64,000 nt of DNA, taken from Candidatus Omnitrophota bacterium (GTDB lineage Bacteria; Omnitrophota; Gorgyraeia; Tantalellales; Tantalellaceae). The translations under genes and the position numbers were made by a program. Below the pieces are notes generated by a model. That model was not told the origin of the DNA. It did not search any database and saw only the letters and a list, made by a program, of their open reading frames with translations. Location of the stretch: assembly GCA_041667545.1 (NCBI GenBank), contig JBAYES010000003.1, positions 2,467 to 66,466 on the forward strand, in the 5' to 3' direction. Below are positions 1 to 59,400 of this stretch, piece by piece; positions within the stretch are counted from its first letter, which is position 1, and every line of letters starts with the position of its first letter.

Positions 1-1148
1 TACCAGCCCACACGGTTATACAGCTCAATCTGGCGACCGCCTTCACATTGTGCCTCGACCTGAATGCGTGCCTGTTTTAACGCTTCGTTGCCCGGCGGGT
101 GACCAAAATCCCTACGATACCGCATAGCAAAGCAGTTCCTAAACCGTGAACTGCTCGTCTGGCAAACCTCAAAATGCTTATCAAAAGGAAGGACAACATA
201 GGGGTTACCCTGCTGATCAGAAAAATATTCCGTGATGATTTCTTCGCAATCTCGGGTTATTATCTCGCCTTGAGTGAGCTTCTTTTGCTTAGGCGATTTT
301 GAATCGGTAAATTCATTCTGCGTGTCCTGAATCGCTTTATCGATAAGACTTTGACCATACGTCTTGCCATCACTAAAATGCTTCTCATCCCACTTAGAAC
401 GCATAAGACCGGACTGACGGAACAAAGAATCCATAGCCACCGAATTCTTGCCAGTCCAAAAAGCGAGTTTATTGCATAAAGCTAGATCCGCCTCTGACTG
501 GGAAGGATAATCGTCCTGCCATTTGCCTTCATACAATTTCAAGAAAACATCAGCGTCTTTGCTTTTTCTGATCCTGTTAAGGATAAATTTTATTTTCTTG
601 TTATCCGAGTCCAGACTTTCAAGATGTTCGTATAAGGCTTTGAGTTTATCGGGGCATTCCGTGATCGTATTATTACAACCATCAACTATGTCCCCAGTCG
701 TAATAAGGAATCTACTCCCCGAATACATCTCAACATTAAATGAGCTAAGCTTGCGATCTCGAGGAAGTACGCCTTTACAGATGATATGAATACCTGTTCC
801 GCTTACTGAATATTCTGTGTAGCTATTAATCTCGGATATTATTTCTTTAGCAAAAGGCGAGATAATGCCATCTGTGACGCAGTTATCAATATCTATGCCC
901 ACATACGGCAGATTGATAGCAAAGCCGATAGCGTCAAGATTATCCGCTCGCTTAATGACCTCATCAAATGAATGCCATGTTTTTGGATCATTACACCGGG
1001 CGTTTTTACCGGTCAAAACATCAACAGGTATCTTTTTATCCTTCTTGCCTTTTTGTGGTGTGAATTTGAAGCCTACCCAGATCGGCAGGTCTTTGAGAAC
1101 TTGAGGAATATTTTCCCTGTTCTTCTCTTTTCTTCTCTCTTTCTTCAT
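1..1148 (-). CDS. DNA primase, AEP Prim-Pol domain plus PriCT-1 C-terminal domain (phage/plasmid type), 3'-truncated by window edge
   Basis: Minus-strand translation from ATG at 1148-1146 (RBS GGAG 8 nt upstream) reads through to position 1 with no stop. Motifs VGIDIDNC (DxD), SGTGIHIICKG (sGxGxHxh) and PriCT-like ADLALCNKLAFWTGKN...LFRQSGLMRSKWDEK are present. The ORF is absent from the six-frame track only because its stop lies outside the window. Confidence 0.6.
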   Translation of the reverse strand, partial: MKKERRKEKNRENIPQVLKDLPIWVGFKFTPQKGKKDKKIPVDVLTGKNARCNDPKTWHSFDEVIKRADNLDAIGFAINLPYVGIDIDNCVTDGIISPFAKEIISEINSYTEYSVSGTGIHIICKGVLPRDRKLSSFNVEMYSGSRFLITTGDIVDGCNNTITECPDKLKALYEHLESLDSDNKKIKFILNRIRKSKDADVFLKLYEGKWQDDYPSQSEADLALCNKLAFWTGKNSVAMDSLFRQSGLMRSKWDEKHFSDGKTYGQSLIDKAIQDTQNEFTDSKSPKQKKLTQGEIITRDCEEIITEYFSDQQGNPYVVLPFDKHFEVCQTSSSRFRNCFAMRYRRDFGHPPGNEALKQARIQVEAQCEGGRQIELYNRVGW

Positions 1149-1150
1149 TT

Positions 1151-1498
1151 TTATGCTCCGTTCTGAAATATAAAGTCTTTAACCTTCCTGTAACATTGAA
1201 ATAACTGCTCCTCTTTGGAGTTATTAAAAAACTTATCCGCCAGCTTGCGTGTTTTCTCGGCATCACCAAAAAGAATTCGTTTCTGCCTGCCGGAACCGGA
1301 TAAGCCTTTCATGTCGCACCCCTGTGATACGAGGTACGTGGCTAAATAAATATTTCCCGCTTCAAAGTAATTTTCTTCCATAATTCTTTCCTTTTCTTTG
1401 CCTGGACTAGGTACATACAACTTTTTTTCTCGATTTGTTGCACCCATTTTCAGATATACGACGCGCCCCCGAAAACTGTCGGGATATATTTCCTTCAT
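1151..1498 (-). CDS. hypothetical protein, first gene of the primase operon (stop TAA 1151-1153 sits 3 nt before the primase ATG)
   Basis: 115-aa ORF tightly coupled to the downstream primase gene; no recognisable motif. Confidence 0.4.
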   Translation of the reverse strand: MKEIYPDSFRGRVVYLKMGATNREKKLYVPSPGKEKERIMEENYFEAGNIYLATYLVSQGCDMKGLSGSGRQKRILFGDAEKTRKLADKFFNNSKEEQLFQCYRKVKDFIFQNGA

Positions 1499-2228
1499 AG
1501 GGTATATACGACGTCTTTCTTAATTCTGTCCCCCCCATACATACAGATTTTCCTGCCAAAATGTCGCGCTTGATCTTGAACTTTTTGCCCCTCACTATAT
1601 ACATACAGATTTTTTCCAAAAAGTGTCCCCCCTTAGAGCGTATATACGTAAAAAATCTTCAAAATGTTGCAGGTGTTTTTAAAATTTTTCATCACCACCA
1701 CCCTCAAAACGTATATACGGAAAAATTTCTCAAAGTGTCTCACTCTTTTTTGCCTTTTTTCCAAAAACCTCTCCTTCAAAACATACATACGTCAAAATTC
1801 TTCAAAATGTTGCAGACTAAATTACAATTCTTGCTCCCACCGGGTACATACAACTTTTTTTGCCAAAGTGTCTCAGCCGTTCTAAATATACATTCCCCAT
1901 AATTCTCAAAAGTGTCGGGATTATTTTCTCCTCAAAGCGTATATACCGAGTTTTTCCAAAAAGTGTCGGAATTATTTTGCCCATATTCGTGTATTCAGGA
2001 TTTTTCCGAAAAGTGTCGGAATTATTTTCCCCCTATTAGTACATTCCGGTTTTTTCCGCAAAGTGTCGGAACTTTTTTTATTTTTTCTGCAACAAATCAG
2101 GAAAAAAAGTCGTATATACGTATTAGGGTGGGACACTTTCGCTAAAAAAACTGTATATACGCAGTAGTAGACAAATTATTTAAAGAAAATCCCGACACTT
2201 TTGGCATTTTTACGGAATATATATATAT
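1454..2228. repeat. Array of about 12 imperfect direct repeats plus 2 inverted copies. Unit is roughly cGTATATACg-(8-14 nt)-TTTTTCCaAAAAGTGTCgg. Iteron-like; candidate replication origin or recombinase/regulator binding array
   Basis: Units at about 1502, 1537, 1596, 1639, 1710, 1780, 1843, 1884, 1938, 1988, 2038 and 2109. The last three direct units are spaced exactly 50 bp. Inverted copies (GACACTTT...GTATATAC) lie at about 2130-2165 and 2191-2228. The array sits between the divergent primase operon and serine recombinase 1. Confidence 0.75.
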
Positions 2229-2235
2229 GGGGGTA

Positions 2236-2267
2236 TTAGCTTGACTTGTCCCAAGGAGTGTTATAGG
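2236..2267 (+). promoter_or_regulatory. putative promoter of serine recombinase 1 (TAGCTTGACTTG ... TTATAGG); the same motif recurs upstream of recombinase 2
   Basis: TTGACT at 2241-2246 and TTATAGG at 2261-2267. A near-identical TAGCTTGACTTGgg...TATTATAGGG lies at 44354-44383 upstream of the second recombinase. The -35/-10 spacing is short (14-15 nt), so exact promoter elements are uncertain. Confidence 0.35.
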
Positions 2268-2293
2268 GGTGTTGTATTAAGGAGGTTTGAAAA

Positions 2294-4096
2294 ATGAGTG
2301 CAGAGAAGAAAAGAAAAAAGTTCGTAATTTACACACGCTGTTCAACTGATGATCAGGCAAAAGGTGACTTCACCACGCTTGACGCACAGGCTCACCACTG
2401 CCGGAATATGCTTGAAGCGTTCGGTTATGAAATGGCTGATTTCGGTGATAAAGGTATTATTAACGATGACGGTTATTCAGGCAAAGACCTGAACCGCCCC
2501 GGAATCCAGTCAATCCTTAAAGACATACAATCCAAAAAGTCGTTTGACGGAATCATATTTTTTAGGCTTGATAGGCTCACCAGAAACCCTCGTGACCTTT
2601 ACGGCATGATCGATACCTTCAAGGCTGAAGATATAGCCTTTTTATCCGTCAGAGAGAATCTTGATAGCACAACAGCCATAGGCAGAGTTGTGATCGGCAT
2701 CATCGGCTTATTATCAGCCTTTGAGCGTGAACTTACAGGCGAACGTGTAAAAGCTTCAGCTATCGCAAGAGCAAGACAAGGAAAATGGGTAGCGGGTAAA
2801 CCGCCTTACGGATACATACAAGTCAAAGACGGTGAAAGATTATCAAACGGTAGACAACCACACAAAATTGAACTTGATAAAAACCTTGCTCCTCATTTTA
2901 AGATGATCTTTGAAATGGCGGCTGATAACCATTCGCTCTCAACTATCGGCAACGAACTTATCAAAAGAGAAGTCCCCACAGCAAACGGCAACCTCTGGCG
3001 TAAACAGACTATTGCTAAAATACTAAAGAATCCATTTTATAAAGGAATGATTTCATACTCAGGCGAGATAAATAAAGGCAATCACGAAGCAGTTGTAGAT
3101 GAAGAATTATGGAGTAAAGCAAACAAGATAATATCCGCAAGCCTACCCGGACACAGGTTCTTGAAAACAACTCTGGACTACAGCCATCTGTTAAAGGGCA
3201 TTCTGTTCTGCGGAAAATGTGGGAGTTATTTTGTATCAACACACGCCCGAGGCAAAATGGGCAATAAGTTTTATTATTACGAATGCAGTCGAGCAAGACA
3301 AAAACTCGGATGCGATACTAAGCGCATATCAGCAACATCATTTGACCGGGCGGTTATTGACTTTTTAGGCAGGGCGTCCGAAGACCAGAATATTATTGTA
3401 AAAGCTATCGGGAACGCTATTGAGCATTCATCAACACAACTCGATAAATACGATAAGGAAATCCGCCAGTTAAAAAAGAAACTCGACAAAGCCAAAGACT
3501 CTGCTGATAAACTGCTTAACCTTGCCATAGAAAAGGTTATCACCAAGGGACGGACTTATTCAGAAAAAATGGACACACTTGAAACCGAAATCACCGTTCT
3601 TGAAGATAAACTCGGAAAAGCCAAAGCCCGAAGGAAAGCCGCTGAGATGACCGCTAACTCGAACGAATACCTGCACGCAAACCTACAGCTTGCCATGAGA
3701 TACCTCGATCAAGCCCCTCCAGACGCCCAAATCGCCCTTTTAAAGGCACTTATCAAGATACTCAAGGTTTATGACGATCATGTGAAGATGGAAATGTTTA
3801 TAAACGAACCGAACGATGAACTTGTGCAGAACTTACCACTGAAAGAGCCCCAAAAACAACGAACCCCGCTCCTTCTTGAGGAACAGGGTTCGACTGAGCG
3901 TCAACAATGGCGGCTCAGCGGGAACTATAGACGAAAGTCACAACTCCAAGAAATACAACTACTTGTGAAACTTTACAAAAAGCGAAGTATGGGTGCTCTC
4001 ATCTCATTAGGTAAACCAATCGATACTTCCCGCCGTTACGATAAAGGTATTCTATCACGAAACCGCGTAAAAGCCACCGAAACCGTAGTTTTATAA
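2294..4096 (+). CDS. large serine recombinase (resolvase/invertase N-terminal catalytic domain plus recombinase and zinc-ribbon/coiled-coil C-terminal part)
   Basis: Shows the N-terminal serine recombinase signature (VIYTRCSTDDQ...RLDRLTRNPRD). Length is 600 aa. Cys-rich CGKCGSYF...YYYECS region and a long coiled-coil are present. Strong RBS GGAGG. About 70% identical by eye to the second copy at 44423-46090. Confidence 0.85.
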   Translation: MSAEKKRKKFVIYTRCSTDDQAKGDFTTLDAQAHHCRNMLEAFGYEMADFGDKGIINDDGYSGKDLNRPGIQSILKDIQSKKSFDGIIFFRLDRLTRNPRDLYGMIDTFKAEDIAFLSVRENLDSTTAIGRVVIGIIGLLSAFERELTGERVKASAIARARQGKWVAGKPPYGYIQVKDGERLSNGRQPHKIELDKNLAPHFKMIFEMAADNHSLSTIGNELIKREVPTANGNLWRKQTIAKILKNPFYKGMISYSGEINKGNHEAVVDEELWSKANKIISASLPGHRFLKTTLDYSHLLKGILFCGKCGSYFVSTHARGKMGNKFYYYECSRARQKLGCDTKRISATSFDRAVIDFLGRASEDQNIIVKAIGNAIEHSSTQLDKYDKEIRQLKKKLDKAKDSADKLLNLAIEKVITKGRTYSEKMDTLETEITVLEDKLGKAKARRKAAEMTANSNEYLHANLQLAMRYLDQAPPDAQIALLKALIKILKVYDDHVKMEMFINEPNDELVQNLPLKEPQKQRTPLLLEEQGSTERQQWRLSGNYRRKSQLQEIQLLVKLYKKRSMGALISLGKPIDTSRRYDKGILSRNRVKATETVVL

Positions 4097-4179
4097 TGGG
4101 CCCCGTCGCCTCACCTTTATCCCTCTTAGACACGTGGTACCAGCAAATCAGCTAATGTTGTAGGGGTTAGCATACCCTT

Positions 4180-5211
4180 CTACCAAAAGTTCTCTAACTC
4201 TTGTTTGGCACAAAATGCTTTATCAGCTTCGTCTTTGCTCGAATATGAGCCAAGTTTAAAATGAATAAAATGCTTCGATTTCTCATGAAGCTCAATTCCA
4301 ACAATTGACCACTTACGATCAGCTCTTTCGCACATTACTAAAATTGATGATTTATCCTTAAGGATTATAGACTCCAAGACTGTGAGCTTGGGACAAATAT
4401 CTTCATTATCACTATGCGCAAATATTGATCCAACCCTAATATTCTGAAAGTATTCCCCAAGAGGATCATTTCCAAAATCTTGAGGGCAACATGGAAAATA
4501 GGCGCCCGCTCGCCACATATATTGTGCACACCATGGTGTTAAGGCAAGATCTAAACCCGGTTCTCCAGCAAGACCAACTTCCCACTTTTGCAGAGGCTTA
4601 TAAACTCCCTTCCCAAAAGTGCTATTGCAATTGCTGTCACCAGTTAATCTTGCGGGCTTATTATCAGAATTTGCCCAAACAGACATTCGCATCTTACAGT
4701 TTTGTGCCTCCTCAGGCGTTACCGTTCGCATCCATGTAAAGTTCGGATCTCCTTGAAGATCATTTAGCATCGAAGGATTTTCAAGAAAAGCCTCAATACT
4801 ACCGCATAAATATTCAATCTTTTTCCGGGTCACTGGATTTTTAAGGGCATTCTCTAATCGAGTCAACCATCTCAGATTTTCAGGTCGATTATTCCTACAG
4901 TTTGTATCAATATGATCTACCACATGATTGGGGTCAGGCGACTCTCCGTGAAAAGCAGTGGCCACAATTCTATGAATGCGAACATTCGAAATATGCAAAT
5001 ATGGATTTGCTGAATTTTCCTTCCCGAACGTCCATTTATTATCGTTGGCGCGCGCACGCTTGCCGTTTACTTGATGCCGCAATACCGCACCGTTGTCCCG
5101 GACGGAATATTTTTCGTTTTTATAGACACAAGTCTTTTCTTCATTGAAATTATTTATATCAGCATTCGTCACGTTATTTCGCTCCTGATAGAAGTCTGCT
5201 TGTGTGTCCAA
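4180..5211 (-). CDS. HNH endonuclease domain protein (phage HNH_3-like N-terminal domain plus unknown C-terminal domain)
   Basis: Motif HISNVRIHRIVATAFHGESPDPNHVVDHIDTNCRNNRPENLRWLTRLEN. Confidence 0.55.
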   Translation of the reverse strand: MDTQADFYQERNNVTNADINNFNEEKTCVYKNEKYSVRDNGAVLRHQVNGKRARANDNKWTFGKENSANPYLHISNVRIHRIVATAFHGESPDPNHVVDHIDTNCRNNRPENLRWLTRLENALKNPVTRKKIEYLCGSIEAFLENPSMLNDLQGDPNFTWMRTVTPEEAQNCKMRMSVWANSDNKPARLTGDSNCNSTFGKGVYKPLQKWEVGLAGEPGLDLALTPWCAQYMWRAGAYFPCCPQDFGNDPLGEYFQNIRVGSIFAHSDNEDICPKLTVLESIILKDKSSILVMCERADRKWSIVGIELHEKSKHFIHFKLGSYSSKDEADKAFCAKQELENFW

Positions 5212-5441
5212 AATTCCACGTTCTAGTCAGTTTTCAGGTTAGTTTTCCGGCTTCTATCCTCTAACTATTCACCATCTTCCCATTTTGTCCGACAACAAGA
5301 CCCTGCAACCCCTGCTTTAGCACGCTTAACCCCAACCCGGATGCCTGTAGACACACAGCCATCATGAATACGCTTGATGTCGTTTGCCCACTTATCCATA
5401 TCCTCCAATTGAATTTCGTATATCCAAAAACTCCAACATGT

Positions 5442-6131
5442 CTACTCCCACCCGATCTCGCATGCAAGATATTCCCTGATAACAATTCGAATAGTTACCC
5501 CGCTACCCGTGAAAGCAAGATATCGATAGCGTTCAGGCTGAACGGTAATCCACAAAACCGAGCCGGGCTCATTCACAATTAAACGTTGCGAAGCACGGCT
5601 ACCCACCTCTGGGAATACCACAGGCCTTGGCACATCCTCAAAAGAATCCCTCTTCTCTGAGTCCATAGCAATAAATGGCGTACAAGTAAACCTAACTGGA
5701 TCACCCAATTGCGGCTCATTCAACTCATAAACCGCGTGTCCGCGCGCCAACTTCAATAGTACATTTTTAACACGAGGCAACTCGGCAGAGAACAATACTC
5801 CGTTATCTACTTCTTTTTGAGCCTGTTTGAATTTTGAAACCAGCGCAGGCTTTCTTTGTAAAATTGAACTGATTCTCTTTCGCTCAATAGCATTATAATC
5901 AATTGTTCCGCAAACAACGCATTCTATAAGACATGCTAAATACTCTTCATCAAGGGAGAAACTCTCATTACACGATTGGCACGCAAAGGCTACCGATAAA
6001 TTCGCAGGATAAGGTTTATCCAAAAAAACTTTGGAAGGAACGTGATCTCGCGTTTCTGTTCCTTTCCCGCAATGACAACAAAACCCGGACTGTCTTCTGT
6101 CTCCCAAATTCAACAACTGCTCCATTGGCAC
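5442..6131 (-). CDS. HNH nuclease (Cys-box CxxC...DH...CxxC)
   Basis: Motif CCHCGKGTETRDHVPSKVF...CQSCNESF. Last gene of the GHKL-containing co-directional cluster. Confidence 0.5.
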   Translation of the reverse strand: MPMEQLLNLGDRRQSGFCCHCGKGTETRDHVPSKVFLDKPYPANLSVAFACQSCNESFSLDEEYLACLIECVVCGTIDYNAIERKRISSILQRKPALVSKFKQAQKEVDNGVLFSAELPRVKNVLLKLARGHAVYELNEPQLGDPVRFTCTPFIAMDSEKRDSFEDVPRPVVFPEVGSRASQRLIVNEPGSVLWITVQPERYRYLAFTGSGVTIRIVIREYLACEIGWE

Positions 6132-6175
6132 AATCCTTCAATAATTGAATTTATCATCAGAACCATGTTTAAATT

Positions 6176-7819
6176 TTATGATAAAAGTGTTTTAATCCGA
6201 CCCTTAATATTCTCATAAACAGTGGTCAATTTTCTTTTGGCTTCATCCGTCAAGCGTGCAGTATGCATCAAAGCATCGCGTATCGGTTTATATTGCTTGG
6301 AATCGTTAGGAAGAGAATTTTGTCCTCCAGTCTTATCAACAAGATTCGCAAGACCCTGCATATCTAAATAACTTATATCGACATCTACGTGACGAATATC
6401 AATATTGATGCCACCTGCCACTTTATTTTGTGACTCTCTTCGCTTCCATTCATTAATATCCCTCTGTGCTTCCGGAGATATCGTAATATTTTTTTCGGTG
6501 ATGAATTTTCTGATTAAATTCTCCGAAATGAAACAATCAGCATAAGATGCAAAGTTAAAGGCCGCATCTCCGGCTAACTCATTTACCCAACCATCGACTT
6601 TCTTTTTATTTGTAGCTTCTTTGGGAAGCACAAAATCTTCCGTTACCGCATTGAATAATTCTTCAGCTTTTCTTTCTTTTGTAGATATTATTGCATTATC
6701 CGGATCCCCATCGTTGCGATGCTTCCTGCGCCAAGTATCCCAATCGTTAAGAATTCTTCCGATAACTTTGTCGCGGAGAAAATCCAAGAATTCTTTGTAT
6801 TTAGGATCATCGGCAACAATGCTTTCACGGCTACTGGTAAATCTATCCATTCCGTCGTCCAAATCATTAAAATGGATCTGCCCATATAAGTAGCTTTCCA
6901 CGACTCTAGCCGTCGGGATATGCTTAAGAATATCTCTTTCCCGCAATCTTCCATTGACAAAAAGATCCACCCCGACCCTTTCGTCCATGGTGATTATCTT
7001 CAAATCGCGAGGTTTTTCTACCGAGGCGATAAATCCCTTTATCCCGGCTTCTAATTTGAACTGACCGATCTCTTTCAGTTCGAAACTTTTGCATAACCTG
7101 TCGATATATGGGTCCCGGAGATCGTTTATTTTCCACAAGAACTGTGTACGTGAAGCCAGATCATCCAAACACTCATGAGTAACTAGTTCGTCTCCAATAT
7201 AAATCTTAAAATTGGGATCAATCAGGGAAAATCGAAAGTACAACGCAACGATCTTTTTAAGAAATGCCAAGCTGTGCTTTATTCCATCTTTTATATTTTC
7301 GAAATGAATAATAGTTCCCTGATCGTTATCCTTTGTGAACTGCGCAAAAGCGTCCAGCTTCACATCTCCTAGCTGGTATTCTTTCGGAGTCAAATCGTCT
7401 GTAATAGCCTTATCCAAACCAGAGTTGTCTATGACTCCTCCTATATAATCACCTCCAGCCTTCTTTGATATGACCGCGATTTTCTCAGCACAGGACAACA
7501 AAGCAAGCTTGCCTATACCCTTTCGCCCTATATAAGGCCTGTTTTTATGGGGCGATGAATGTCCGTCCCTCCTTTTGGAGTATCCTATTTTCAAAAACTT
7601 ATTCTGAAAATCATCAGCCGTCATTCCAATTCCATCGTCCTTAATAAGAAAGCGCCCGTTCTCTTTATCAATATAAATATACACGCTCTCCGCATTGGCA
7701 TCCCAAGCGTTCGATATAGCTTCCCCAAGCACAGTGGCAAAACTTCTGTACAAATTTCTCCCCAAATGATTTAGAACGCTTAGTGAAATCTCAAACGAAA
7801 ATTTGTTGGTTTTCTTCAT
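6176..7819 (-). CDS. GHKL-family ATPase (HATPase_c_3 / MORC-Hsp90-like)
   Basis: N-box EAISNAWDANA, G1 box DDGIGM and G2 box GRKGIGKLA. Confidence 0.65.
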   Translation of the reverse strand: MKKTNKFSFEISLSVLNHLGRNLYRSFATVLGEAISNAWDANAESVYIYIDKENGRFLIKDDGIGMTADDFQNKFLKIGYSKRRDGHSSPHKNRPYIGRKGIGKLALLSCAEKIAVISKKAGGDYIGGVIDNSGLDKAITDDLTPKEYQLGDVKLDAFAQFTKDNDQGTIIHFENIKDGIKHSLAFLKKIVALYFRFSLIDPNFKIYIGDELVTHECLDDLASRTQFLWKINDLRDPYIDRLCKSFELKEIGQFKLEAGIKGFIASVEKPRDLKIITMDERVGVDLFVNGRLRERDILKHIPTARVVESYLYGQIHFNDLDDGMDRFTSSRESIVADDPKYKEFLDFLRDKVIGRILNDWDTWRRKHRNDGDPDNAIISTKERKAEELFNAVTEDFVLPKEATNKKKVDGWVNELAGDAAFNFASYADCFISENLIRKFITEKNITISPEAQRDINEWKRRESQNKVAGGINIDIRHVDVDISYLDMQGLANLVDKTGGQNSLPNDSKQYKPIRDALMHTARLTDEAKRKLTTVYENIKGRIKTLLS

Positions 7820-7859
7820 GCTTACACCTTATTTTTTTGCGCAACTAACACAGTCGGAA

Positions 7860-9746
7860 TTATCCTGTAATCGTCACGTAGGTTTTTATCATACTGATAT
7901 TTTCCTTACGAGTTTTCTTCTCGTACCCAATCTTATCGCAAATATTCTCAATCTTTATTGCAAATTTATCGCAGTCGACCTTGGTCATCGACAAACCCTT
8001 GCTGGTGCGAACACTCGTATGCCATTCAGCATCCACATCAAGTGGTTTCTGAGGCCTGTGACCATGAATATTAAAAACTCTATGGTCTGTTCGCGTGATC
8101 CAACCAGCGCCAACTTCCGTCACCGCACCCCAAGAACCAGCCATGTCCTTACTGGTGACATAAATAACATAGATTTTTTCGGTTGAATAACTTTCGACGA
8201 AAAACTCCCTTAAATAATCCCAGACTGCTATGCCGTCTGGTATCCGGCTTATCTCATCGTCGCAATTCGTATAGATGATATCTTCGGAAGGAACCCGATT
8301 GAATAATAATAGGTTGTATATAATATCTGCCAAATCTTTATCCTCTTTGGTGTGGCATATAAGAATCCTTCTTTTCTGTGCATCAAGTTTTCTCTTTATG
8401 CCCACAATCGGGAGCAACTCATTCATTTCATCTTTGATAATTTTTTCTACTTTTTCCGGACTAATTTTCTCTGTTCGCCTCAATTCCTTTGTGATTTTCC
8501 TCGTTGCAATATTCGAAGTCTCCTTTTTATATCTTTCGACTAATACTCTCAGTTTCTTTTCCTTCTCGAGCTGTTCTCTCATTTTTTCTTTTTTCTTTTC
8601 ATCATCTTTATAGTTCGCATAAGCTGCTCTAATCGCAACAATATCAGGCAATAATTTCTTTGCGACGAACGAAATCACTTCTTGATATCTCGGGTCATCG
8701 GTTTTATACCCCTGCCGATTACTCAACGACATATCGGGCAATTCGGTTTCTTCAAATAAATCGATATGAAGTTGTCCAACCACATATACTTCCTGTAGCT
8801 TGTTCTTTCCTACGATCGGAAGTATGTTATATTCACCCAGCTTACTATTGGATAAGAGCGAAATAAAATTATCCGGAAAATCGTCCGTCTCCGCTTTTCT
8901 CCCTCTTGTAGTTTTATAAACTCCAATCCATCCTTTGATAATCAAATCATATTCTTTCTCTTCCCCAGTTTTATTTCTGAGCTTCATAAGCCTCTTTTCT
9001 TCATTACGAAACTGCAATAGTTCTTTTCCTTTCTTAAGATAATCGTTTTCGAAATATTTGCTCAAATAGTTAAAACCGGAGCCAATGATAATCAAACCTC
9101 CAAGCTCCTTGATCATCTCTCGATCAAAGCTATCAATGATCATTTCATTGTTGTCCTGAATAATATGTACTCGAAAACTTTTGTCGATGAGAGGAAAGAT
9201 CTTCAACAGGTTTCTCTTGATCGCATCAAAGGACTTGTTCAATCTATAGCTTGGGTCTTTCATTATTATTGAGGTGCCGTGCTTTCCAATTTTTTCGAAT
9301 TTTATGTCCTTTTCGCTCAAAGCCTCCAAAAGTCTATTAGCCGCGATATGTCTCGTAAGAATAAATCCCGACTTTTCCCCGGCCTTGACCGACATAACCC
9401 ATACGTTTTCGGAAATAGAAATAGCCGCTAGTTTTCCGATACCTTTCCTCCCAATTTTCCTGCGCCCGCTCCCCGTGTAGGCATCTTTTTGTGTCGTTCG
9501 AGTCTCTTCTGCTACATGCAAATATTTATTCGTATCTTCCGGATACCTCATTCCAACTCCATCATCTTCAACAATTATGGAATCGGATTTCGCTATTATA
9601 TATACATTTTTTGCATCAGCATCGTAGGCGTTTGCGATCAACTCAGCCAGAATGTAATAAACATTCGTATAGAGATGGGGCCCCAAAAAATCCAACAATT
9701 TTGGATCGAGTTCAAGCCTGTATTCGCGCTTTGATTGATCAACCAT
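7860..9746 (-). CDS. GHKL-family ATPase with a Lys/Glu-rich coiled-coil and a C-terminal TIR-like (DUF1863-like) domain
   Basis: N-terminal boxes ELIANAYDADA, DDGVGM and GRKGIGKLA. C-terminal segment ILICHTKEDKDLADIIYNLL...IYVIYVTSKDMAGSWGAVTEVGAGW resembles the TIR beta-A / alpha-E pattern. The start overlaps the stop of the upstream m5C methyltransferase by 8 nt. Confidence 0.55.
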   Translation of the reverse strand: MVDQSKREYRLELDPKLLDFLGPHLYTNVYYILAELIANAYDADAKNVYIIAKSDSIIVEDDGVGMRYPEDTNKYLHVAEETRTTQKDAYTGSGRRKIGRKGIGKLAAISISENVWVMSVKAGEKSGFILTRHIAANRLLEALSEKDIKFEKIGKHGTSIIMKDPSYRLNKSFDAIKRNLLKIFPLIDKSFRVHIIQDNNEMIIDSFDREMIKELGGLIIIGSGFNYLSKYFENDYLKKGKELLQFRNEEKRLMKLRNKTGEEKEYDLIIKGWIGVYKTTRGRKAETDDFPDNFISLLSNSKLGEYNILPIVGKNKLQEVYVVGQLHIDLFEETELPDMSLSNRQGYKTDDPRYQEVISFVAKKLLPDIVAIRAAYANYKDDEKKKEKMREQLEKEKKLRVLVERYKKETSNIATRKITKELRRTEKISPEKVEKIIKDEMNELLPIVGIKRKLDAQKRRILICHTKEDKDLADIIYNLLLFNRVPSEDIIYTNCDDEISRIPDGIAVWDYLREFFVESYSTEKIYVIYVTSKDMAGSWGAVTEVGAGWITRTDHRVFNIHGHRPQKPLDVDAEWHTSVRTSKGLSMTKVDCDKFAIKIENICDKIGYEKKTRKENISMIKTYVTITG

Positions 9747-10809
9747 GGTATTCCTTCATATGGCGGATGATGCTTCTTCCGATTATTTCTCCGAGCCTGA
9801 CAGGGACTGCATTGCCTATGTAAACTCCTATTTTTCTGAATGAAAATGGCGTTTTTCTATCCCAAAATTTATACTTGCGTGGGAAAGTCTGCAACATGGC
9901 TCCTTCTCGTAGGGATAACGCCCTATCTTGCTCGGGGTGGCCGAAGCGCCCTGTTCCGAAACTATAAAATTGAGTGGTTATCGTTGGGGAAGGACAATCC
10001 CATCTCATCCTTGAATAAACCGAACTGTAAGTCTCCCCCGACTCCTTTTGATGACACTGGGCCCGCAACCCTTCTTCCCAGTCCTTCCAACTCCCTCCCG
10101 GCTTAGACTTTCGTATTCTTTTAAGATTGATTTGTGTAAGCGTTGCGGAACGATGAAGAAAATCGTTTCTCGAAATCGTACCGGCGTCAATCAATTCGAG
10201 TTTACCAATGGTATCGGCAACCGTTTTATAGTTCTCGCGTTTACGCGTTGCTGGCAACAACTCTATTTTGCCCAGCTTTGATGCCAACAATACTAAACGA
10301 GTCCTGTTTTGCGGAATTCCATAGTCAGGACAAAAAACCGATTTCCATGACACGAAATACCCCTCATCTTTGATACCGCAGACAAAATCCTCGAAAACTT
10401 TGTACTTAGCCAGCTGTGGAACATTTTCCATAGAAATAATCGTTGGCTTTAGCTCTTTGACTAACTTCAGAAAATGATACAAAAGACCCCACTTTTCATC
10501 TTGGTCTCTTTCTTTATTTTTTTGTGTGTGCTTTGAAAAGGGTTGGCAAGGCGCACATCCGACCAAAATCTTCAGATTTGCCGATCCGTATAAGGCGTTA
10601 AGCTCCGTTGCTGTAAAATCTTTAATATTTTTAGCAATAAATTTTGCATCATTATTTTTCTCATATGCAAACTTGCAAGACTCATCCAGATCCACACCCG
10701 CCGAGACTGCAATCCCAGATTTAATCAATCCATGGGTCAACCCACCGACGCCGCAAAACAAATCAACGGCAACCGCCGATGTTGCTTTTTTATTATATTG
10801 ATTTCGCAT
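9739..10809 (-). CDS. dcm: DNA (cytosine-5)-methyltransferase
   Basis: Motifs DLFCGVGG (I), GCAPCQPFS (IV), ENV (VI), QNRTRLVL (VIII) and GNAVPV (X). Confidence 0.85.
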   Translation of the reverse strand: MRNQYNKKATSAVAVDLFCGVGGLTHGLIKSGIAVSAGVDLDESCKFAYEKNNDAKFIAKNIKDFTATELNALYGSANLKILVGCAPCQPFSKHTQKNKERDQDEKWGLLYHFLKLVKELKPTIISMENVPQLAKYKVFEDFVCGIKDEGYFVSWKSVFCPDYGIPQNRTRLVLLASKLGKIELLPATRKRENYKTVADTIGKLELIDAGTISRNDFLHRSATLTQINLKRIRKSKPGGSWKDWEEGLRAQCHQKESGETYSSVYSRMRWDCPSPTITTQFYSFGTGRFGHPEQDRALSLREGAMLQTFPRKYKFWDRKTPFSFRKIGVYIGNAVPVRLGEIIGRSIIRHMKEYHG

Positions 10810-36687: not shown

Positions 36688-37737
36688 ATGGCCGAATATA
36701 AGAAACAACATTATGTCCCAAGGTGCTACTTGAGATTTTTTTCAAATGACCAAACAAATAAATTAATCAATTTATACAACATAAAGAACAATCGCTGTAT
36801 TAACAACGCTCCCCTAAATGACCAATGCTATGAAAAATACTATTATGGCAAAAACCCAGAACAGGAAAAAAGGTTGTCAAAAATTGAAAGCGCGGCTACA
36901 TCTGCAATAGAAAACATCCTTAAAAATGGACGCTTGCCGAAAGTAAACAGTGAACAACATCTCGCATTGATTCTTTTTATTTTATTACAAACAGCCCGAA
37001 CCCCCTCTGCGGAATCGGATTCCATTTGTTCGTTTACTTCTCTCATAAAAGAACTGCTTATTTACGGAAATCCACAACATAAAAAGGCGATTAAAGAAGC
37101 AACAATAAGAATGTCAAACATGCCGTCAATAAATGTTGCTTCCGCCATCAGATCAATGTTCTTATTGTTTGATTTAAAATACAAACTCTTTAGAAACCGT
37201 TCCCATGAAGGTTTTATAACTTCAGACCATCCCGCTGTAAAATATAATTTTTTATACGAAAAGAGGAAAAACCATTTAACAAAAACAGGCTTTGCTACTC
37301 GTGGTCTTCAAATATTCATACCCATTTCTTCTCGATACTGCTTGATGTTTTATGATGGCACTTCTTATAAATTTGGTTTTCTGCGGCAAGATACTATAGA
37401 TGTAACAAAGCCGGAAACCGTAGACTCAATAAATTGTTTGCAACTGATAAATCGACCAAAAAATATTTATTTTGACAACATGGTTTCGTCGTCTTATGTT
37501 CAAAATATAGTTTCATCTAATCAAGGGTTGTTGGCTGACAGCAAATTTACTCTTAAAAAACACCCACAAGGTTTCTATCTTCATGAACAAACCAAAGATT
37601 TTAATCTTAAAATCCCTACCATCAGGATTATTCCCAATGCGCGTAAAGCAATAAAGACGTCTGATATACGTAACCCAGAATTATTACGACTCAATAATAT
37701 GCTTTTTGATAACGTTGACAAGCAAAACAAAAAATAG
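36688..37737 (+). CDS. DUF4238-family protein (anti-phage Rst_DUF4238-like); opposite-strand moron inserted between terminase and portal genes
   Basis: N-terminal signature KKQHYVPRCYLRFF. Gene is visibly AT-rich relative to flanking phage genes. Has its own TATAAT (36626-36631) and GAGGA RBS. It is the only plus-strand gene in the late operon. Confidence 0.6.
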   Translation: MAEYKKQHYVPRCYLRFFSNDQTNKLINLYNIKNNRCINNAPLNDQCYEKYYYGKNPEQEKRLSKIESAATSAIENILKNGRLPKVNSEQHLALILFILLQTARTPSAESDSICSFTSLIKELLIYGNPQHKKAIKEATIRMSNMPSINVASAIRSMFLLFDLKYKLFRNRSHEGFITSDHPAVKYNFLYEKRKNHLTKTGFATRGLQIFIPISSRYCLMFYDGTSYKFGFLRQDTIDVTKPETVDSINCLQLINRPKNIYFDNMVSSSYVQNIVSSNQGLLADSKFTLKKHPQGFYLHEQTKDFNLKIPTIRIIPNARKAIKTSDIRNPELLRLNNMLFDNVDKQNKK

Positions 37738-43352: not shown

Positions 43353-43886
43353 TCACCTCAGATACTCTTCAAGCCCTACTTTTCTAAATACTTCACGAAT
43401 TCGTTTGATCTCATCCTGAAGGGTAGTCCGCGGGATATTCATTACGTCTCCGACCTTCACCTGACTCATCCCTTCCGACAAATACCGGCATATCTGCTTC
43501 TGCCTGAAAGAAAGGTTGGCCGTTGCTTTCGACATCGCCTCAGGAAGATCCGCCGCCGTTATTTTTATCGTTGTCTGTTCTTCAACCATCAGTATTCTCT
43601 CCTTCGTGCTGATCATTTTTTCGTCATCATCCATCGCGTCAAGCGATTCACTCTCATATGAAACTCTTCGTTTATTCGCGGCTCTTCTGCGTATAAGATC
43701 GGCTATTTTGTTACGTGTGACCCTGTTAAGGAATGTGCGCTCGGATGCCCCTGACTCGGAACGATACTGCTCTTTCATGAAAAACCAATGAATCAAACAT
43801 TCCTGCAAAAGATCTTCAATTCCTTCTTTCCGAAGACTCGCGTAGTCGCGTTGCGCGCCCTTGACAGAACAAAGAATCTCCCGCAA
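43353..43886 (-). CDS. sigma-70 family (ECF-like) sigma factor, candidate late-gene activator
   Basis: Region 2-like LIHWFFMKEQ...FLNRVTRNKIADLIRRR. Region 4 HTH LSFRQKQICRYLSEGMSQVKVGDVMNIPRTTLQDEIKRIR. Confidence 0.6.
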   Translation of the reverse strand: MREILCSVKGAQRDYASLRKEGIEDLLQECLIHWFFMKEQYRSESGASERTFLNRVTRNKIADLIRRRAANKRRVSYESESLDAMDDDEKMISTKERILMVEEQTTIKITAADLPEAMSKATANLSFRQKQICRYLSEGMSQVKVGDVMNIPRTTLQDEIKRIREVFRKVGLEEYLR

Positions 43887-43982
43887 TTCCCACTCCTGAA
43901 ATAATCCGCGATAGTTTTGACTAATTCGGACACCTCTTTTCTTGAAGGCGTCCGAAAAGTTTTTTTATACGTATCCGAATTA

Positions 43983-44195
43983 TTAATATCTTTTCCTTGT
44001 AAGCGGTTTGCATCCCGATAATTCATCTGGCGTCGGCTCTCTTTTTAATATTCCTGTTAGCACCGCTTTCACGGCCTCAAAGATTCTTTGATTCTGTTTC
44101 CTCCGCTCCTCGCCTTCTAAAGGCTTGTCCGGATAAACAAGAACGAATCCTTTTTTGAACCGCTTTCCTAAGTTTGAATTTTGCCGGTCGCCCAT
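43983..44195 (-). CDS. hypothetical protein
   Basis: ORF only. Confidence 0.3.
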   Translation of the reverse strand: MGDRQNSNLGKRFKKGFVLVYPDKPLEGEERRKQNQRIFEAVKAVLTGILKREPTPDELSGCKPLTRKRY

Positions 44196-44214
44196 AATGC
44201 TCCTCTATTAGCTA

Positions 44215-44298
44215 CATACGCAGACTTTCCGAAACCTGCCGGAAAAAAGTTTTAAATTGAAAATATTTCCGTCACCCTGCCGGAAATCTGCGTATATA
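44215..44298. repeat. inverted repeat ACATACGCAGACTTTCCG ... CGGAAATCTGCGTATAT with internal direct repeat CCTGCCGGAAA x2; arms resemble the TACATACAGATTTTCC iteron family at 1454-2228
   Basis: Read directly from the sequence. Lies about 60 nt upstream of the conserved recombinase promoter motif. Confidence 0.6.
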
Positions 44299-44422
44299 GA
44301 TAGAAAGCAAGCATCTGTGATCCCCGACCTTAAGCACCCTAAGCCCTTGTTATAGCTTGACTTGGGATGCCTTCTATTATAGGGTTGGGTCGCATTGCGA
44401 AAAACGAATTCGAAAGGATGTT

Positions 44423-46150
<1,728 letters not shown>

Positions 46151-46165
46151 GCATTTCTAAGTTAC

Positions 46166-47320
46166 TTAATCTGAAGGACTTACGTGTAACAACTGTTTCT
46201 CTAACAATTCGATAGAACCCTGTGGTGCTTGTTTGGTGCTTATAATCGTCTCCATCATACTCCCCAAGGTGTCTACGGACTTAGCTTTATGCCCTTGGGA
46301 TAGATGGGAATACCTCATTGTCATCTTTATGTCCTTATGCCCCATCAGTTCCTTTACAGTCATAAGGTCTACCCCGTTCATCACAAGGTGACTTGCGAAG
46401 GTATGTCGTAGGTCATGCCAACGACAATGTGTGATTTTAGCACATCTTATCGCTTTTGAGAAGATTTTATCTACATTTTTAGGGAAGACTATTTCTGTAT
46501 CGTAATGTTCTCGTAAGTTAATAAGTTCCCTCTTTACTACTGCGTTCATAGGACACATTTTAGGCTCATTGTTTTTTGTCTTATGAACATATATGATGTT
46601 GTTCCTAAGGTCTATATCAGACCACTTCAGCCGCATCATCTCACCTCGTCTCATACCAGTGTTAAGTGCCGTAAGTACTGCTGCCTTGAGGTATGGGTCA
46701 CATACTTGTAATAACCGTGCTATTTCCTCTCTCTCCAAGTAACGGACTTTAACATTGTTCTCTCTAAGATGTTTTATAGTATCAAGAGGGTTCTTTTCAG
46801 CATAACCCCATTCGATAGCTTTTTTAAAGGCGGTCTTCATTATAGTGAGATATCGGTTCACCGTGGATGGTTCAATGCCTTCCTGAAGTTTGTGCTTCTT
46901 AAAATCTTCTATATCATAAGGTTTGATTTCATCAAGGTATTTACCCCTGCCTAGTACATCCGCGGCTGATGTAAGCCTTTGTACATCGTCTTTCCAAGAG
47001 GATTTGTTGGGTTTGGAGTATGTTTCGAGGAATAGGGTTATAAAGTCTATGAGTTTAATGCGTTTTACTTTGCTTTTATCGAGGAATTTCCCTTCGGCTA
47101 TTTCTGTTTTCCGTTTGGCAAGTACTGTTTCAGCGAGTTTCTTGTTGGGTCCTATAGTTTCCCGTGTCTGTCTACCATCCACATAGTAAGATATGCACCA
47201 AATACCCTTTCTATCTTTTCTTTGGTAGACTCCTTTCATTGTTCCCTCCCTTACCCTGACGCCAAAGCCTCCAACACCATAACAGTAAACTTCCAATAGA
47301 CCTGTCTTCTTCTCTGGCAT
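46166..47320 (-). CDS. tyrosine recombinase / phage integrase
   Basis: C-terminal catalytic region contains ...RWHDLRHTFASHLVMNGVDLMTVKELMGHKDIKMTMRYSHL (R...HxxR...Y). Has an N-terminal SAM-like domain. Confidence 0.85.
   Translation of the reverse strand: MPEKKTGLLEVYCYGVGGFGVRVREGTMKGVYQRKDRKGIWCISYYVDGRQTRETIGPNKKLAETVLAKRKTEIAEGKFLDKSKVKRIKLIDFITLFLETYSKPNKSSWKDDVQRLTSAADVLGRGKYLDEIKPYDIEDFKKHKLQEGIEPSTVNRYLTIMKTAFKKAIEWGYAEKNPLDTIKHLRENNVKVRYLEREEIARLLQVCDPYLKAAVLTALNTGMRRGEMMRLKWSDIDLRNNIIYVHKTKNNEPKMCPMNAVVKRELINLREHYDTEIVFPKNVDKIFSKAIRCAKITHCRWHDLRHTFASHLVMNGVDLMTVKELMGHKDIKMTMRYSHLSQGHKAKSVDTLGSMMETIISTKQAPQGSIELLEKQLLHVSPSD
46224..46248. repeat. 25-bp direct repeat GGTGCTTgTTTGGTGCTTAtAATcg inside the int 3' coding end; partner at 55886-55910
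   Basis: Left copy is ggtgcttgtttggtgcttataatcg; right copy is ggtgcttatttggtgcttagaatac. Confidence 0.6.
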
Positions 47321-56037: not shown

Positions 56038-56078
56038 TTAGCAAACCGTTGCCTTCAGCCAGCTCAGCCACCTCTCCG
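56038..56078. repeat. 41-bp direct repeat, right copy (displaced partial tRNA-Ser 5' half); candidate att site
   Basis: Identical to 46111-46151; the flanking sequence diverges immediately outside. Confidence 0.8.
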
Positions 56079-56425: not shown

Positions 56426-59400
56426 TTAAAGTGAACGGTCTATCGCTTCCCAGGCGGCGCGTTGATTAGCGATATCCTGCCATTCTGCCAGCTGGATCGT
56501 TATAACGCTCCCGGGAGCGAAAAGACGCTTAATTATGTCCCTGGGGTCCTCTTCCCCGTCCAGCATAGCGGTAAGAAGGTAAAGAAGACCGCGGTAGTTA
56601 TTTTCGTCCTGTTTAGCCTCGGATGAAAGCCTGTCATACTCCAGCATATTGAACCCAAGCCCGAAAAGTGAAACAAGATCGGGGTCTTCTCCCGAGTCAA
56701 TTATCTGGAACACTATTCTCTCATCTTGCAGAGAAACCATCCGGCCGTCTATCTCTTCATATTTGAGAAATTTTTCTGCGCTTTCGGGCACCATTATAAC
56801 GGCGCGGCCGACCCAGTCTTTGTTCTCAGGAAGGTCAAGAGCTGATATACAGCTATCTACAGCCTCTCCTATGACCCGGGGAAGATCATGTTCGGTATAA
56901 AATTCCTTTATGTCCGACCGCGCGAAAAGTTTATACGGGAACTGGCCGAGATTCTTTATTATGCGCTGTATGTGTCCTCTTGCTCCGTTAACTCTCCCCA
57001 CCTGGACTACCTGACTCACAACGTTAAAATGCCCGGTCTTATGGTAATTCGACATCCCTTCCACCATACATCCTGTCCGCAGGGCCATGCGAAATTCAGC
57101 TCGCCTCTCTATCGGCTGCTTCTTGATCTCCGCTTTAATACGAGAAATACCCTCAATGCCGCCGCTCTTTTTTATGCTGTCCAACATTCCCCCAGTAAGG
57201 GCCAGGCGATCGAGCCTCTCCGCTTCAAATAGCGGGAGCAGACCATCCAGAGGCCCTTCGAGTCTCGGGGCGGCCCGGTTCGCAATGTGAGTTTGAAGTC
57301 CGGACGGGTCCATATCATTGAAAACTCCGGGTTCTTCTATACGATATATACCTGTACCCCTCACCGTACTTGTCCCCGGATAAACTATATCGGGCTCTTT
57401 TGCTTTCTCGTCGGATACCAGTATATCTTCAGTAGGCTCCGTAATAAGTATGGCGCCTTCTTCGGCTATGGAAAATATGTTGGAAAGCGCTATAAAGTTC
57501 CTTATCCGAGGTTCCTTTGCCTTTTCTTGAGCATCACGGCCGACTACCCTCGAATAATAAGATGTCAGGTAATACACATTACGGAAAAAGATAAAATCGG
57601 CTGTCCTCCCATAATTTTCAAAAGCGTCTTTCCGCACCTCCGCCATCCCTTCTCTGTCAAGAACATTGACCCTGCACGGTTTTATTGTAAGGCTTTCTAA
57701 TCCGTGCTCTGTTAGAGGAGAAAGGGCTTCTGTGAACTTATGCCCTCTTGCCGCCCCGTCGGATATCGGGATCAGGCTCTGATCCGCCTCCATAGCGTAA
57801 GCGACGACCGACCAGTCCGATCTTTTCTCCCCAGATTTATCGAGTTCTTTAAGAAACATTGCGAGAGTCTCCCTAAGCTCAACAGGCTCCCTGCCTATGC
57901 CAATAAAATGTAGCACTATCCGTTTCTGAAGGTTCGGATCGTTTTTCGTCCTAAGTATGAATTCCCTCAATTCGGATGAGAGTTTCTCTTTCTGGGCGGC
58001 CAATCTCATGTCCACTCCGTGGTCCGGAAGCCCGTACGCGAAGGCCATAGCCCCGGGATTGTAGCTGAGAAGGCGGTCGGCAAGATAAGCATCTTTCGCA
58101 TCTTCCAGGCCCAGATCTCTCAAATGACCTCTAAGCGCGCCTATCTCTTGCGGGGCTCGACCTTTAAGAACGGTTATTTCGATCTCGTCGGGTGAGGTTT
58201 CCGCGGAGCCGGGCGTCAAGTCCGTACTGGGAGAGACTATTTCTGTTTTTTCAGGCTTTCCTTCCGACGCGGGAGGTGCCATTGTTTTGGCTCCGGCAGG
58301 TACGGGCTTATCCGACAAAACGGGATCCTCCGCGGGAGTACCATGATATCTTTCTATTCTTGTATCAGCTCCGAAACCAGTCACATATAGGGGATCGGGG
58401 TCGCCCGCCATTACCCCGATAGGATTGACAAACTGATCTGTCCCCGTACGGGTCTCCTTTCCAGCTATAAAAGCTTCATTTACAGGTTCACCTTCTCTGT
58501 CCTGGGCATTTATCAGCTTAAGGGGATTATCCAATATCTTTCTCAAAAAGTCAGTTTCGCGCTTGTCCGTTACGTTAAGCGCTACAAATTTCTTGCCGTC
58601 CTCTCTTGCCCATTTAGCGAACAGGTTGTACGTGTTCTCTATTATCCGCCGGTGTTTCTCCCTGTCTTTGTCTTTGGCGGACAGAGAGACGATCTGCCTG
58701 TCTATGGCTTTAAACTTAGTATCCTGCTGAGAAGAAGAAAGCGCGATAGGATTCGCCCAGCCTATGCGTTCTTCTTCGATATATATGTCGTATTTCCCCG
58801 TCCTTTCCGGGTCGGCCTTCATAGTTATGGTCCCGTACCGGTTTTGCGGCGACAGATCCCTGAAAGTTACGCTTACAAATTTGTCATTATCGTGGATATA
58901 TCTCTCGATAAGATTGCCGCTTTTATCAACGACAAAATGCCTGTGACCATGCTTATCCCTTATGGTCAAGTGCCCCGGGAACTCAATACCGGGCCGGTTG
59001 ACCGAGATCTCAAGTTCCGTTTTCTCTATCCGGGAAAGCCTTTTCAGAATCCTTTCACTCACTTTGCCATCCGTTGTGAACAATCGTTTAAGATAGAACT
59101 TCACGATACTTTCTTTAATGCCGGGGAATATCTCTGTCAGTGAGGCGGGATTTAGGGTTTCTCGAAGGACAGCGAATGTCCCGTAAGCGAAGACCGCGGC
59201 GGTAATGAACATAATAACCGCTCCGGCCAGCATAAGCCCCATACCTCCACTTGCGCCCATCTCCGCTATGGCCTTCCCGGTTAAAAATAACGCCGGCCCG
59301 GCGGCGGAATAGAGTACGGGAACCCGCATCGTCTGCTCTTCGCTAACGACCGGCCTTACCAGAGCGGGTTCGGAAATTATCTTTTTGAGCGTACCCTCTT

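Follow-up and report, generated by a model that had tools for sequence, protein, structure and literature searches.

We analysed 64,000 nucleotides (nt) of DNA from Candidatus Omnitrophota (GenBank assembly GCA_041667545.1, contig JBAYES010000003.1, positions 2,467 to 66,466 of the forward strand), hereafter the window. Near its left end, a dense repeat array separates a primase-polymerase (PrimPol) operon from the gene of a large serine recombinase, LSR1. Sixteen bipartite 29-nt units occupy 812 nt of non-coding DNA at 1411-2222. From comparative sequence analysis we consider it fairly probable that these units are tandem promoters of the extracytoplasmic function (ECF) type, read by a phage-type sigma factor and located in a PrimPol element that lacks a sigma gene, and that the array is not a replication origin. 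The PrimPol element (element 1) has the following features in the window:

3-1148, - strand: PrimPol-helicase gene, truncated by the left edge of the window to its N-terminal 382 codons (PF22763 NrS-1 polymerase helix-bundle domain, E = 1.6e-28; phrog_1829 DNA primase, E = 6e-80)
1154-1381, - strand: gene for a small DUF5659 protein, first in the replication operon (Pfam PF18903, E = 8.2e-6)
1411-2067, - strand: 13 leftward units toward DUF5659-PrimPol, each reading (y)(s)GACAc-TTT, 13 nt, GTATrTAC on that strand
1411-1439, 1452-1480, 1502-1530, 1537-1565, 1599-1627, 1640-1668, 1711-1739: cores of leftward units 1-7
1783-1811, 1844-1872, 1888-1916, 1939-1967, 1989-2017, 2039-2067: cores of leftward units 8-13
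2091-2119, 2132-2160, 2194-2222, + strand: inverted set of three rightward units toward LSR1
2294-4096, + strand: large serine recombinase LSR1, with Resolvase, Recombinase and Zn_ribbon_recom domains
3880-3913, + strand: right end of element 1, half of an attachment site, GAACAGGGTTCGACTGAGCGTCAACAATGGCGG, which ends at the crossover

The register of the unit was constant: the box GTAYATAC (8 nt) comes first and AAARTGTY last, with 13-14 nt between them according to the limits chosen for the second box. Read in the promoter sense, this becomes GACAC-TTT, 13 nt, GTATATAC. The two-box register was fixed in 16/16 array units and in 33 non-redundant units from related phage loci (described below), and information content was highest at GACAcTTT and GTATaTAC, with a weakly conserved spacer. 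The -35-like boxes of the leftward and rightward sets face each other, a divergent back-to-back layout like that of the phage pairs, across a T-rich junction of 23 nt (2068-2090). The unit nearest DUF5659 stops 29 nt short of the DUF5659 ATG at 1381.

Chance does not account for the array. Nine of the 11 window matches to AAAGTGTC fall in 1620-2201, with 1.9 expected across the whole window. The pattern GACACTTT-N13-GTATATAC, allowing <=3 mismatches, gave 14 matches (13 units and one off-register), all within 1452-2222, against 0.32 expected. A weight matrix derived from the units recovered 16/16 of them, and the next-best window matches were a pair upstream of a second recombinase, LSR2 (44208-44245, + strand, score 17.1; 44266-44303, - strand, score 16.1). 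A sequence-only reading of the window had described about 12 direct and two inverted repeats from 1454 onward; the array was real, but the count was 13 + 3 and the start 1411. Its further statements, that some repeats are spaced by 50 bp, that the flanking operons diverge and that the motif recurs as an inverted pair at the second recombinase, were borne out: the last four direct units lie at intervals of 51, 50 and 50 nt, the primase operon is on the - strand and LSR1 on the + strand, and the inverted pair proved to be the key lead.

Open reading frames (ORFs) listed inside the array (e.g. 1561-1902, + strand, and 1407-1619, - strand) were discarded as repeat artefacts, the true DUF5659 start being 1381, where homology begins. 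An Rfam scan of window 1-5000 at E <= 1 returned no RNA family, and blastn of window 1-4200 against phage records gave a single irrelevant match of 116 nt.

LSR2 and the pair upstream of it belong to a prophage whose terminase and portal genes are of the lambda type. The control region of this prophage contains a sigma gene:

43353-43886, - strand: gene for a phage-encoded, ECF-like member of the sigma-70 family (NCBIfam TIGR02937, 49.4 bits, cutoff 42.9; phrog_1740, E = 1.7e-13; Sigma70_r2)
43983-44195, - strand: conserved gene of 70 amino acids (aa; MG..) preceding the sigma gene; tblastn placed homologues immediately before sigma in almost all phage loci
44212-44240, - strand: unit toward the small-gene/sigma operon; its last box stops 16 nt short of the ATG (44195) of the small gene
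44270-44298, + strand: partner unit toward LSR2
44423-46090, + strand: recombinase LSR2 of the prophage, which is integrated in tRNA-Ser; the ORF enters tRNA-Ser at 46058-46150

To see whether the unit serves the prophage as a general promoter, we searched 10-46 kb and recovered only the 44.2-kb pair; the motif is therefore confined to the recombinase/sigma control region in this prophage. LSR1 and LSR2 are 63% identical over residues 5-540, and element 1 and the phage family have both the promoter type and the recombinase family in common.

Using an alignment of four sigma proteins from LSR2-type modules, we retrieved 38 phage loci (275 kb) from IMG/VR. A loose bipartite pattern matched 50 times in these loci compared with 4.55 ± 1.36 times in dinucleotide shuffles, and 41 of the 50 matches were followed in sense, within <=22 nt, by a Shine-Dalgarno sequence and a start codon (shuffles: 0.2 ± 0.4). 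Each phage locus that we inspected had a divergent pair of units upstream of the small gene. One arm of the pair ends 12-22 nt before the start codon of the small gene and the other faces the recombinase. Across the ~30 related loci, 12-19 nt separate the unit from the ribosome-binding site (RBS) and start codon of the small-gene/sigma operon. All phage loci inspected have a unit before this operon, the position expected for autoregulation. In approximately 24 loci a unit also follows the sigma stop codon directly in promoter sense; after another 5-8 nt come a GGAGG RBS and the start codon with which the next gene begins. Using tblastn, neither PrimPol nor DUF5659 was detected in the locus stretches of ~30 unit-bearing phages.

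The unit shares two conserved boxes and a fixed spacer of the 14-17 nt class with ECF promoters, and the units stand in sense upstream of genes at promoter distance. We regard them as promoters rather than non-directional sites because of the directional two-box structure, the fixed spacer of ~16 nt, the T-tract and the leader-length placement before start codons. Adjacency, autoregulatory placement and clade-specific covariation of the boxes suggest that the phage sigma is probably the factor that reads them.

That covariation is seen when the loci are compared. Boxes are alike in the two to three copies of one phage and different between phage clades, while spacers drift. The -35-like variants among phage clades comprise CCGACA, TGTGACA, CGCGACA, GGGAAC, CGGCAC, CGTCAC and GGGTCA, and the -10-like variants GGAATGTAC, CGATATACA, CTGTATGTA, CGTCGTATA, CCGTATAGAGC and TCGTATGTAG. 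Within the array, variants of both boxes are mixed (-35: GACAC, GACAG, GACAT, GCAACA; -10: GTATATAC, GTATGTAC, GAATGTAC, GAATACAC), and several of them correspond to different phage clades. The window units closest to LSR1 (1888-2067 and 2194-2222) match the phage clade with the recombinases nearest LSR1 (72%), and the remaining units carry other box variants. Overall, unit variants track phage/sigma clades, not PrimPol clades.

An alignment-based metagenome scan provided 80 PrimPol loci for comparison; an IMG/VR scan with a single PrimPol protein had given no match. Units in the scanned loci were restricted to 288-1650 nt upstream of PrimPol, with proximal units always facing the operon and distal units always facing away. 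The number of PrimPol-facing copies was 13 (window, L052), 12 (L054), 9, 8, 6, 4, 3, 2, 1 or 0. Because similar arrays of 12-13 + 3 units recur on the independent contigs L052 and L054, we conclude that the array in the window is not an assembly artefact. L080 and L003 have only one to two units despite a recombinase 92% identical to LSR1, four loci have a single copy (L063, L064, L080, L096), and no upstream repeats were found in L061, L069, L070, L079 and L084. Four PrimPol loci (L058, L059, L060, L078) have a sigma gene of their own immediately upstream, in the order sigma, one unit, DUF5659, PrimPol. The array-bearing elements do not have the 70-aa gene, except L067. DUF5659 immediately precedes PrimPol in most related PrimPol loci that have upstream sequence; searches of PDB sequences, PHROGs and NCBIfam gave nothing useful on this protein.

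The 50-nt repeats of the window retain remnants of a leader and start codon in their spacers (1968-1996, - strand: GAATACACGAAT-ATGGGCAAAATAA). One leader remnant, ATGGGCAAA, is identical to the first nine bases of the pre-sigma small gene in several phage loci. Because the repeats hold such remnants, their sequence points to an origin of the array units by tandem duplication of promoter plus leader.

We propose the following mechanism. The unit would consist of a -35-like GACAC with a T-tract, ~16 nt, and a -10-like (C)GTATATAC, and would be read by RNA polymerase carrying a small phage sigma, the source of which would be a temperate-phage family of Candidatus Omnitrophota. These phages would use two or three promoter copies: the first would drive the small-gene/sigma operon and make sigma autoregulated, a copy back-to-back with the first would face the serine recombinase, and a copy right after the sigma gene would drive the next operon. 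In element 1 the promoter would be amplified, with 13 copies directed to the replication operon and three to the recombinase. The element would remain silent until a sigma of matching specificity arrived, e.g. from an induced or infecting helper phage, and this sigma would then elicit strong expression of the element's replication and recombination genes. We infer both the helper-phage dependence, at which the promoter type and recombinase family shared with the phages hint indirectly, and a benefit of the amplification, which may serve higher output, capture of scarce sigma supplied in trans, recognition of several specificities or titration of the helper's sigma. The suggestion of the sequence-only reading that the repeats control expression of the recombinase survives in part: the units are promoter-like, but they serve both divergent operons and most are aimed at the primase operon.

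Several observations weigh against tandem promoters read by a phage sigma. Adjacent units are 35-72 nt apart, which is below the footprint of RNA polymerase, and the units can therefore not all be occupied simultaneously. We know of little precedent for >10 promoters in a tandem array. The sigma module of the window prophage uses a different -35 variant (CGTCAC / CGGCAG), and no matching sigma is therefore visible in the window. This mismatch and the tight spacing also speak against promoters whose effects simply add up. Covariation of the boxes could come partly from shared ancestry or gene conversion, and a DNA-binding regulator that overlaps a promoter would give a similar placement. The unit boxes may also serve secondarily in priming, as NrS-1-type PrimPols use an 8-nt template signal (PMC7102993).

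Beyond acting as a strong promoter, the array might be a DNA decoy and a multi-specificity sensor for the sigmas of several helper lineages. After replication of the element, the array might titrate sigma holoenzyme away from the two or three promoters of the helper by promoter mimicry. The copy numbers are compatible with a decoy without proving it (one unit in elements with their own sigma, up to 13 in sigma-less elements), and we give this explanation a small chance. An operator array, in which the units bind a non-sigma regulator (a repressor, the 70-aa protein, DUF5659 or the recombinase) over ordinary promoters and buffer or sharpen the repression of two divergent operons, would also fit the location of units in divergent control regions, often as inverted pairs like operators. 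Clade-specific covariation is compatible with any DNA-binding protein that co-evolves with its sites, the 70-aa gene always adjoins the units in phages, and several units hold the -35-like box within a small palindrome, TTCCG..CGGAA. However, lone units, including the partnerless one after sigma, are strictly directional and at a fixed short distance from the RBS and start codon, and two boxes with a fixed ~16 nt spacer and a T-tract are the layout of an ECF promoter. The 70-aa gene is missing from the array-bearing elements apart from the exception above, no repressor-like gene was recognised in them, and the recombinase attachment site is unlike the unit; we therefore think that an operator array is unlikely. 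Ordinary host sigma-70 or ECF promoters, multiplied as a neutral by-product of slippage or unequal recombination, would explain why copy number is highly unstable among relatives and why the last four direct units look like a recent 50-nt tandem duplication with leader remnants; xxGACA, 18 nt, TATATA is moreover a weak sigma-70-like layout. Yet a consensus sigma-70 scan missed the units (three promoter-like matches vs 3.1 expected, no unit among them), the -10-like box has no conserved final T, the boxes are kept while spacers drift, and 12-13 diverged units persist on independent contigs. Constitutive host-driven expression of PrimPol would also be odd for an integrated element. This makes host-read promoters a rather improbable explanation in our view. 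The same scan reported three terminator-like + strand hairpins that overlap -35-like boxes and are probably incidental palindromes.

The sequence-only reading had favoured a P4-like iteron origin, in which the units would be sites where the PrimPol-helicase binds or primes, forming a replication origin as in P4 ori/crr or the origins of phage-inducible chromosomal islands (PICIs). The array indeed consists of many close repeats of one motif in non-coding DNA directly upstream of the DUF5659-PrimPol operon, with direct repeats and an inverted set beside the initiator gene, and its GC content is slightly lower than that of the flanks (0.383 vs 0.41-0.43). NrS-1 polymerase requires a template recognition sequence of 8 nt that occurs once per phage-genome strand and was proposed as the origin (PMC7102993). 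However, the array units neither co-occur nor co-vary with the PrimPol initiator: they stand at gene starts in the ~30 phage loci whose searched stretches yielded neither PrimPol nor DUF5659, the repeats are absent upstream of the operon in five PrimPol loci and reduced to one copy in four others (named above), and the variants go with the phage/sigma clades. Another iteron cluster, conserved in position, is situated at the PrimPol 3' end. All full-length PrimPol elements that we checked have 10-13 copies of the 9-mer nnnTCACA there, usually at offsets of -80, -68, -57, -38, +7, +37, +49, +92, +101, ~+160, +203 and +212 from the PrimPol stop codon and in the orientations - - - - - + + - - + + +, i.e. 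as two opposed sets (e.g. L002:2452-2751 and L080:7328-7573, and the same region in L052-L083). The cluster is displaced as one block in two loci and is also present in PrimPol elements without a promoter array. Its variable part co-varies with the PrimPol clade, being ACGTTCACA or ACGGTCACA in the clade of the window and CTGCTCACA or ATCCTCACA elsewhere. A similar layout is known from pRN1, the origin of which lies downstream of the initiator gene orf904 (PMC4234260), and PICI origins contain two iteron sets (PMC6092414). Judged by its sequence, the nnnTCACA cluster is the likely replication origin of PrimPol elements and a better candidate than the array; in element 1 it would sit just left of the window start. 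Since this cluster has the properties of cognate iterons, and in view of the phage loci, an origin role of the upstream array appears very improbable to us.

Promoters read by a phage sigma would have several known counterparts. ECF-sigma promoters likewise have two short boxes, a fixed spacer of ~15-17 nt, a T-tract after the -35 and a CGTA-like -10, and ECF-sigma systems also place a promoter copy before the sigma's own operon; the phage sigmas are of ECF size (177-192 aa). The sigma-W sites of Bacillus subtilis, for example, have the form tGAAACnTTTt ... CGTA and spacers of 14-17 nt (PMC5758882). In contrast, the -35 of the unit is GACAC instead of GAAAC and varies between clades, and the promoter is amplified 16-fold in element 1. 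Unlike ECF systems, the sigma here is phage-encoded and preceded by the 70-aa gene, and no anti-sigma was recognisable after it. Phage sigmas with their own promoters have been described for phiEco32 (gp36, tAATGTAtA) and phage 7-11 (gp47, GTAAtg-16-aCTA) (PMC8948821). The AATGTA core of the phiEco32 promoter resembles the GGAATGTAC variant and, by analogy, host RNA polymerase may be redirected in the same way to a few phage promoters just upstream of operons. However, those two phages are lytic and use middle and late promoters, whereas the sigma module described here stands beside a temperate-phage integrase, and the promoters also occur on a separate, sigma-less element.

The late promoters of P4 share activator sites with the late promoters of P2 and respond to P2 Ogr. 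Element 1 would be analogous to P4 as a small integrative element with a primase-helicase and an integrase that bears transcription signals of the helper type, through which its expression could be tied to the helper. In contrast to P4/P2, the signal would be a tandemly amplified sigma-type promoter and not an activator site. As in PICI and P4 iteron origins, the element family has 10-13 nnnTCACA copies in two opposed sets, but these are at the PrimPol 3' end, distinct from the array and, for element 1, outside the window. The small gene apparently co-transcribed with PrimPol may be compared with orf56 and orf904 of pRN1 (PMC4234260). The Vibrio cholerae PLE (phage-inducible chromosomal island-like element) could be a further analogue, being likewise small and integrative and equipped with a large serine recombinase and a replication initiator of its own (PMC9410903, PMC9638900). 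PLE is, however, induced by a phage protein that acts on the recombinase, and not by promoter mimicry (PMC9410903, PMC9638900).

The extent of element 1 was deduced from its relatives. The similarity in blastn to L001, L002 and L003 ends at window 3913 (..CAACAATGGCGG|), which places the attachment site within the 3' end of the recombinase gene; element 1 therefore comprises window 1-3913 and continues to the left of the window. In an alignment of six recombinase 3' ends, divergence starts after TGGCGG. Related recombinase genes all contain ..GAACAGGGTTCGACTGAGCGTCAACAATGGCGG and then diverge, mostly into the 3' end of a tRNA. The boundary sequence at 3913 shows no similarity to the units. We had considered the units themselves as recombinase attachment sites, the pair in L004 being a 60-nt palindrome; this was ruled out, as the true crossover is in the recombinase 3' end, where the sequence is unrelated.

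In relatives the whole element measures ~6.1-6.9 kb and encodes the recombinase, the array, DUF5659, a 787-aa PrimPol-helicase (full length in L002), a 223-aa protein and a Xis-like HTH_17 protein. The 70-aa and 223-aa proteins had no match in Pfam, PHROGs or NCBIfam. Searches of the relatives of element 1 revealed neither matches to structural-protein genes nor a sigma homologue, and no capsid-remodelling or packaging genes were recognised in the family. Close relatives come from metagenome-assembled genomes of Candidatus Omnitrophota, some of them labelled Planctomycetia. Element 1 is thus small and integrative, has its own integrase and replication genes and no recognised virion structural genes, from which we infer that it is a sigma-less, satellite-like integrative element.

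If our reading is correct, it defines a promoter and regulatory module for an undescribed family of temperate phages in Candidatus Omnitrophota, with the order recombinase, divergent promoter pair, small gene, sigma, promoter, next operon. To our knowledge, hardly any experimental genetics exists for this phylum. Small PrimPol elements that borrow the phage promoter would represent a sigma-based version of the helper-satellite coupling of P2 and P4. Tandem sigma-dependent promoters in a 13 + 3 arrangement would be unusual, and the relation of copy number to expression level, helper range or sigma titration could be tested. The assumption that repeats adjacent to a primase mark the origin would also need correction, the origin-like iterons being at the opposite end of the primase gene.

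Some further observations concern the two recombinases. Both ORFs cross the attachment site (junctions 3880-3913 and 46030-46063) and homology between the copies ends after ..CAACAATGGCGG; the last 20-60 codons of the LSR1 and LSR2 ORFs therefore derive from flanking DNA. The flank of LSR2 is tRNA-Ser, while LSR1 and the recombinase of L002 are in non-tRNA sites. A second conserved, sigma-70-like element with the pattern AGCTTGACT.., ~13 nt, TGTTATAGGGGTGTTGT precedes LSR1 (2238-2277, + strand, AGCTTGACTTG..TGTTATAGGGGTGTTGT) and LSR2 (44354-44390). It also occurs at L013:3095-3135 and L059:1745-1790 (both reverse complement), and it was upstream of every recombinase gene seen, including a 24%-identical recombinase in L059. 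This element may be an extended -10 promoter for host sigma-70 with a conserved leader.

At the sigma gene, a hairpin GAGACACC..GGTGTCTC covers the RBS and start codon in several loci (L059:2050-2760; L012:7945-7985; L004:5112-5160, reverse complement; window ~43921-43955), suggesting translational control. L059 has a structured element of ~110 nt with this hairpin in five tandem copies upstream of sigma.

Other parts of the window also carry signs of mobile DNA. The 5' part of tRNA-Ser (46111-46151; tRNA 46058-46150) is duplicated at 56038-56078, and a 384-aa ORF adjoining the tRNA (46166-47320) reads like a putative tyrosine integrase. From these two sequence features we suggest a third integrated island at ~46.15-56.0 kb, in a region with several mobile elements. 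A defence-like block (4180-10809) separates the PrimPol element from the structural genes of the prophage:

4180-5211: HNH endonuclease
6176-7819 and 7860-9746: two GHKL-ATPase proteins (PADLOC REase_II models; the second also spbK)
9739-10809: C5 cytosine methyltransferase

A DUF4238 gene (36688-37737) sits between the prophage's portal and terminase genes. It runs on the opposite strand, in a patch of low GC (0.37), and has the look of an accessory gene that was inserted; PADLOC gave no match to it. The right end of the window is occupied by an ORF of 2510 aa (56426-63958, - strand).

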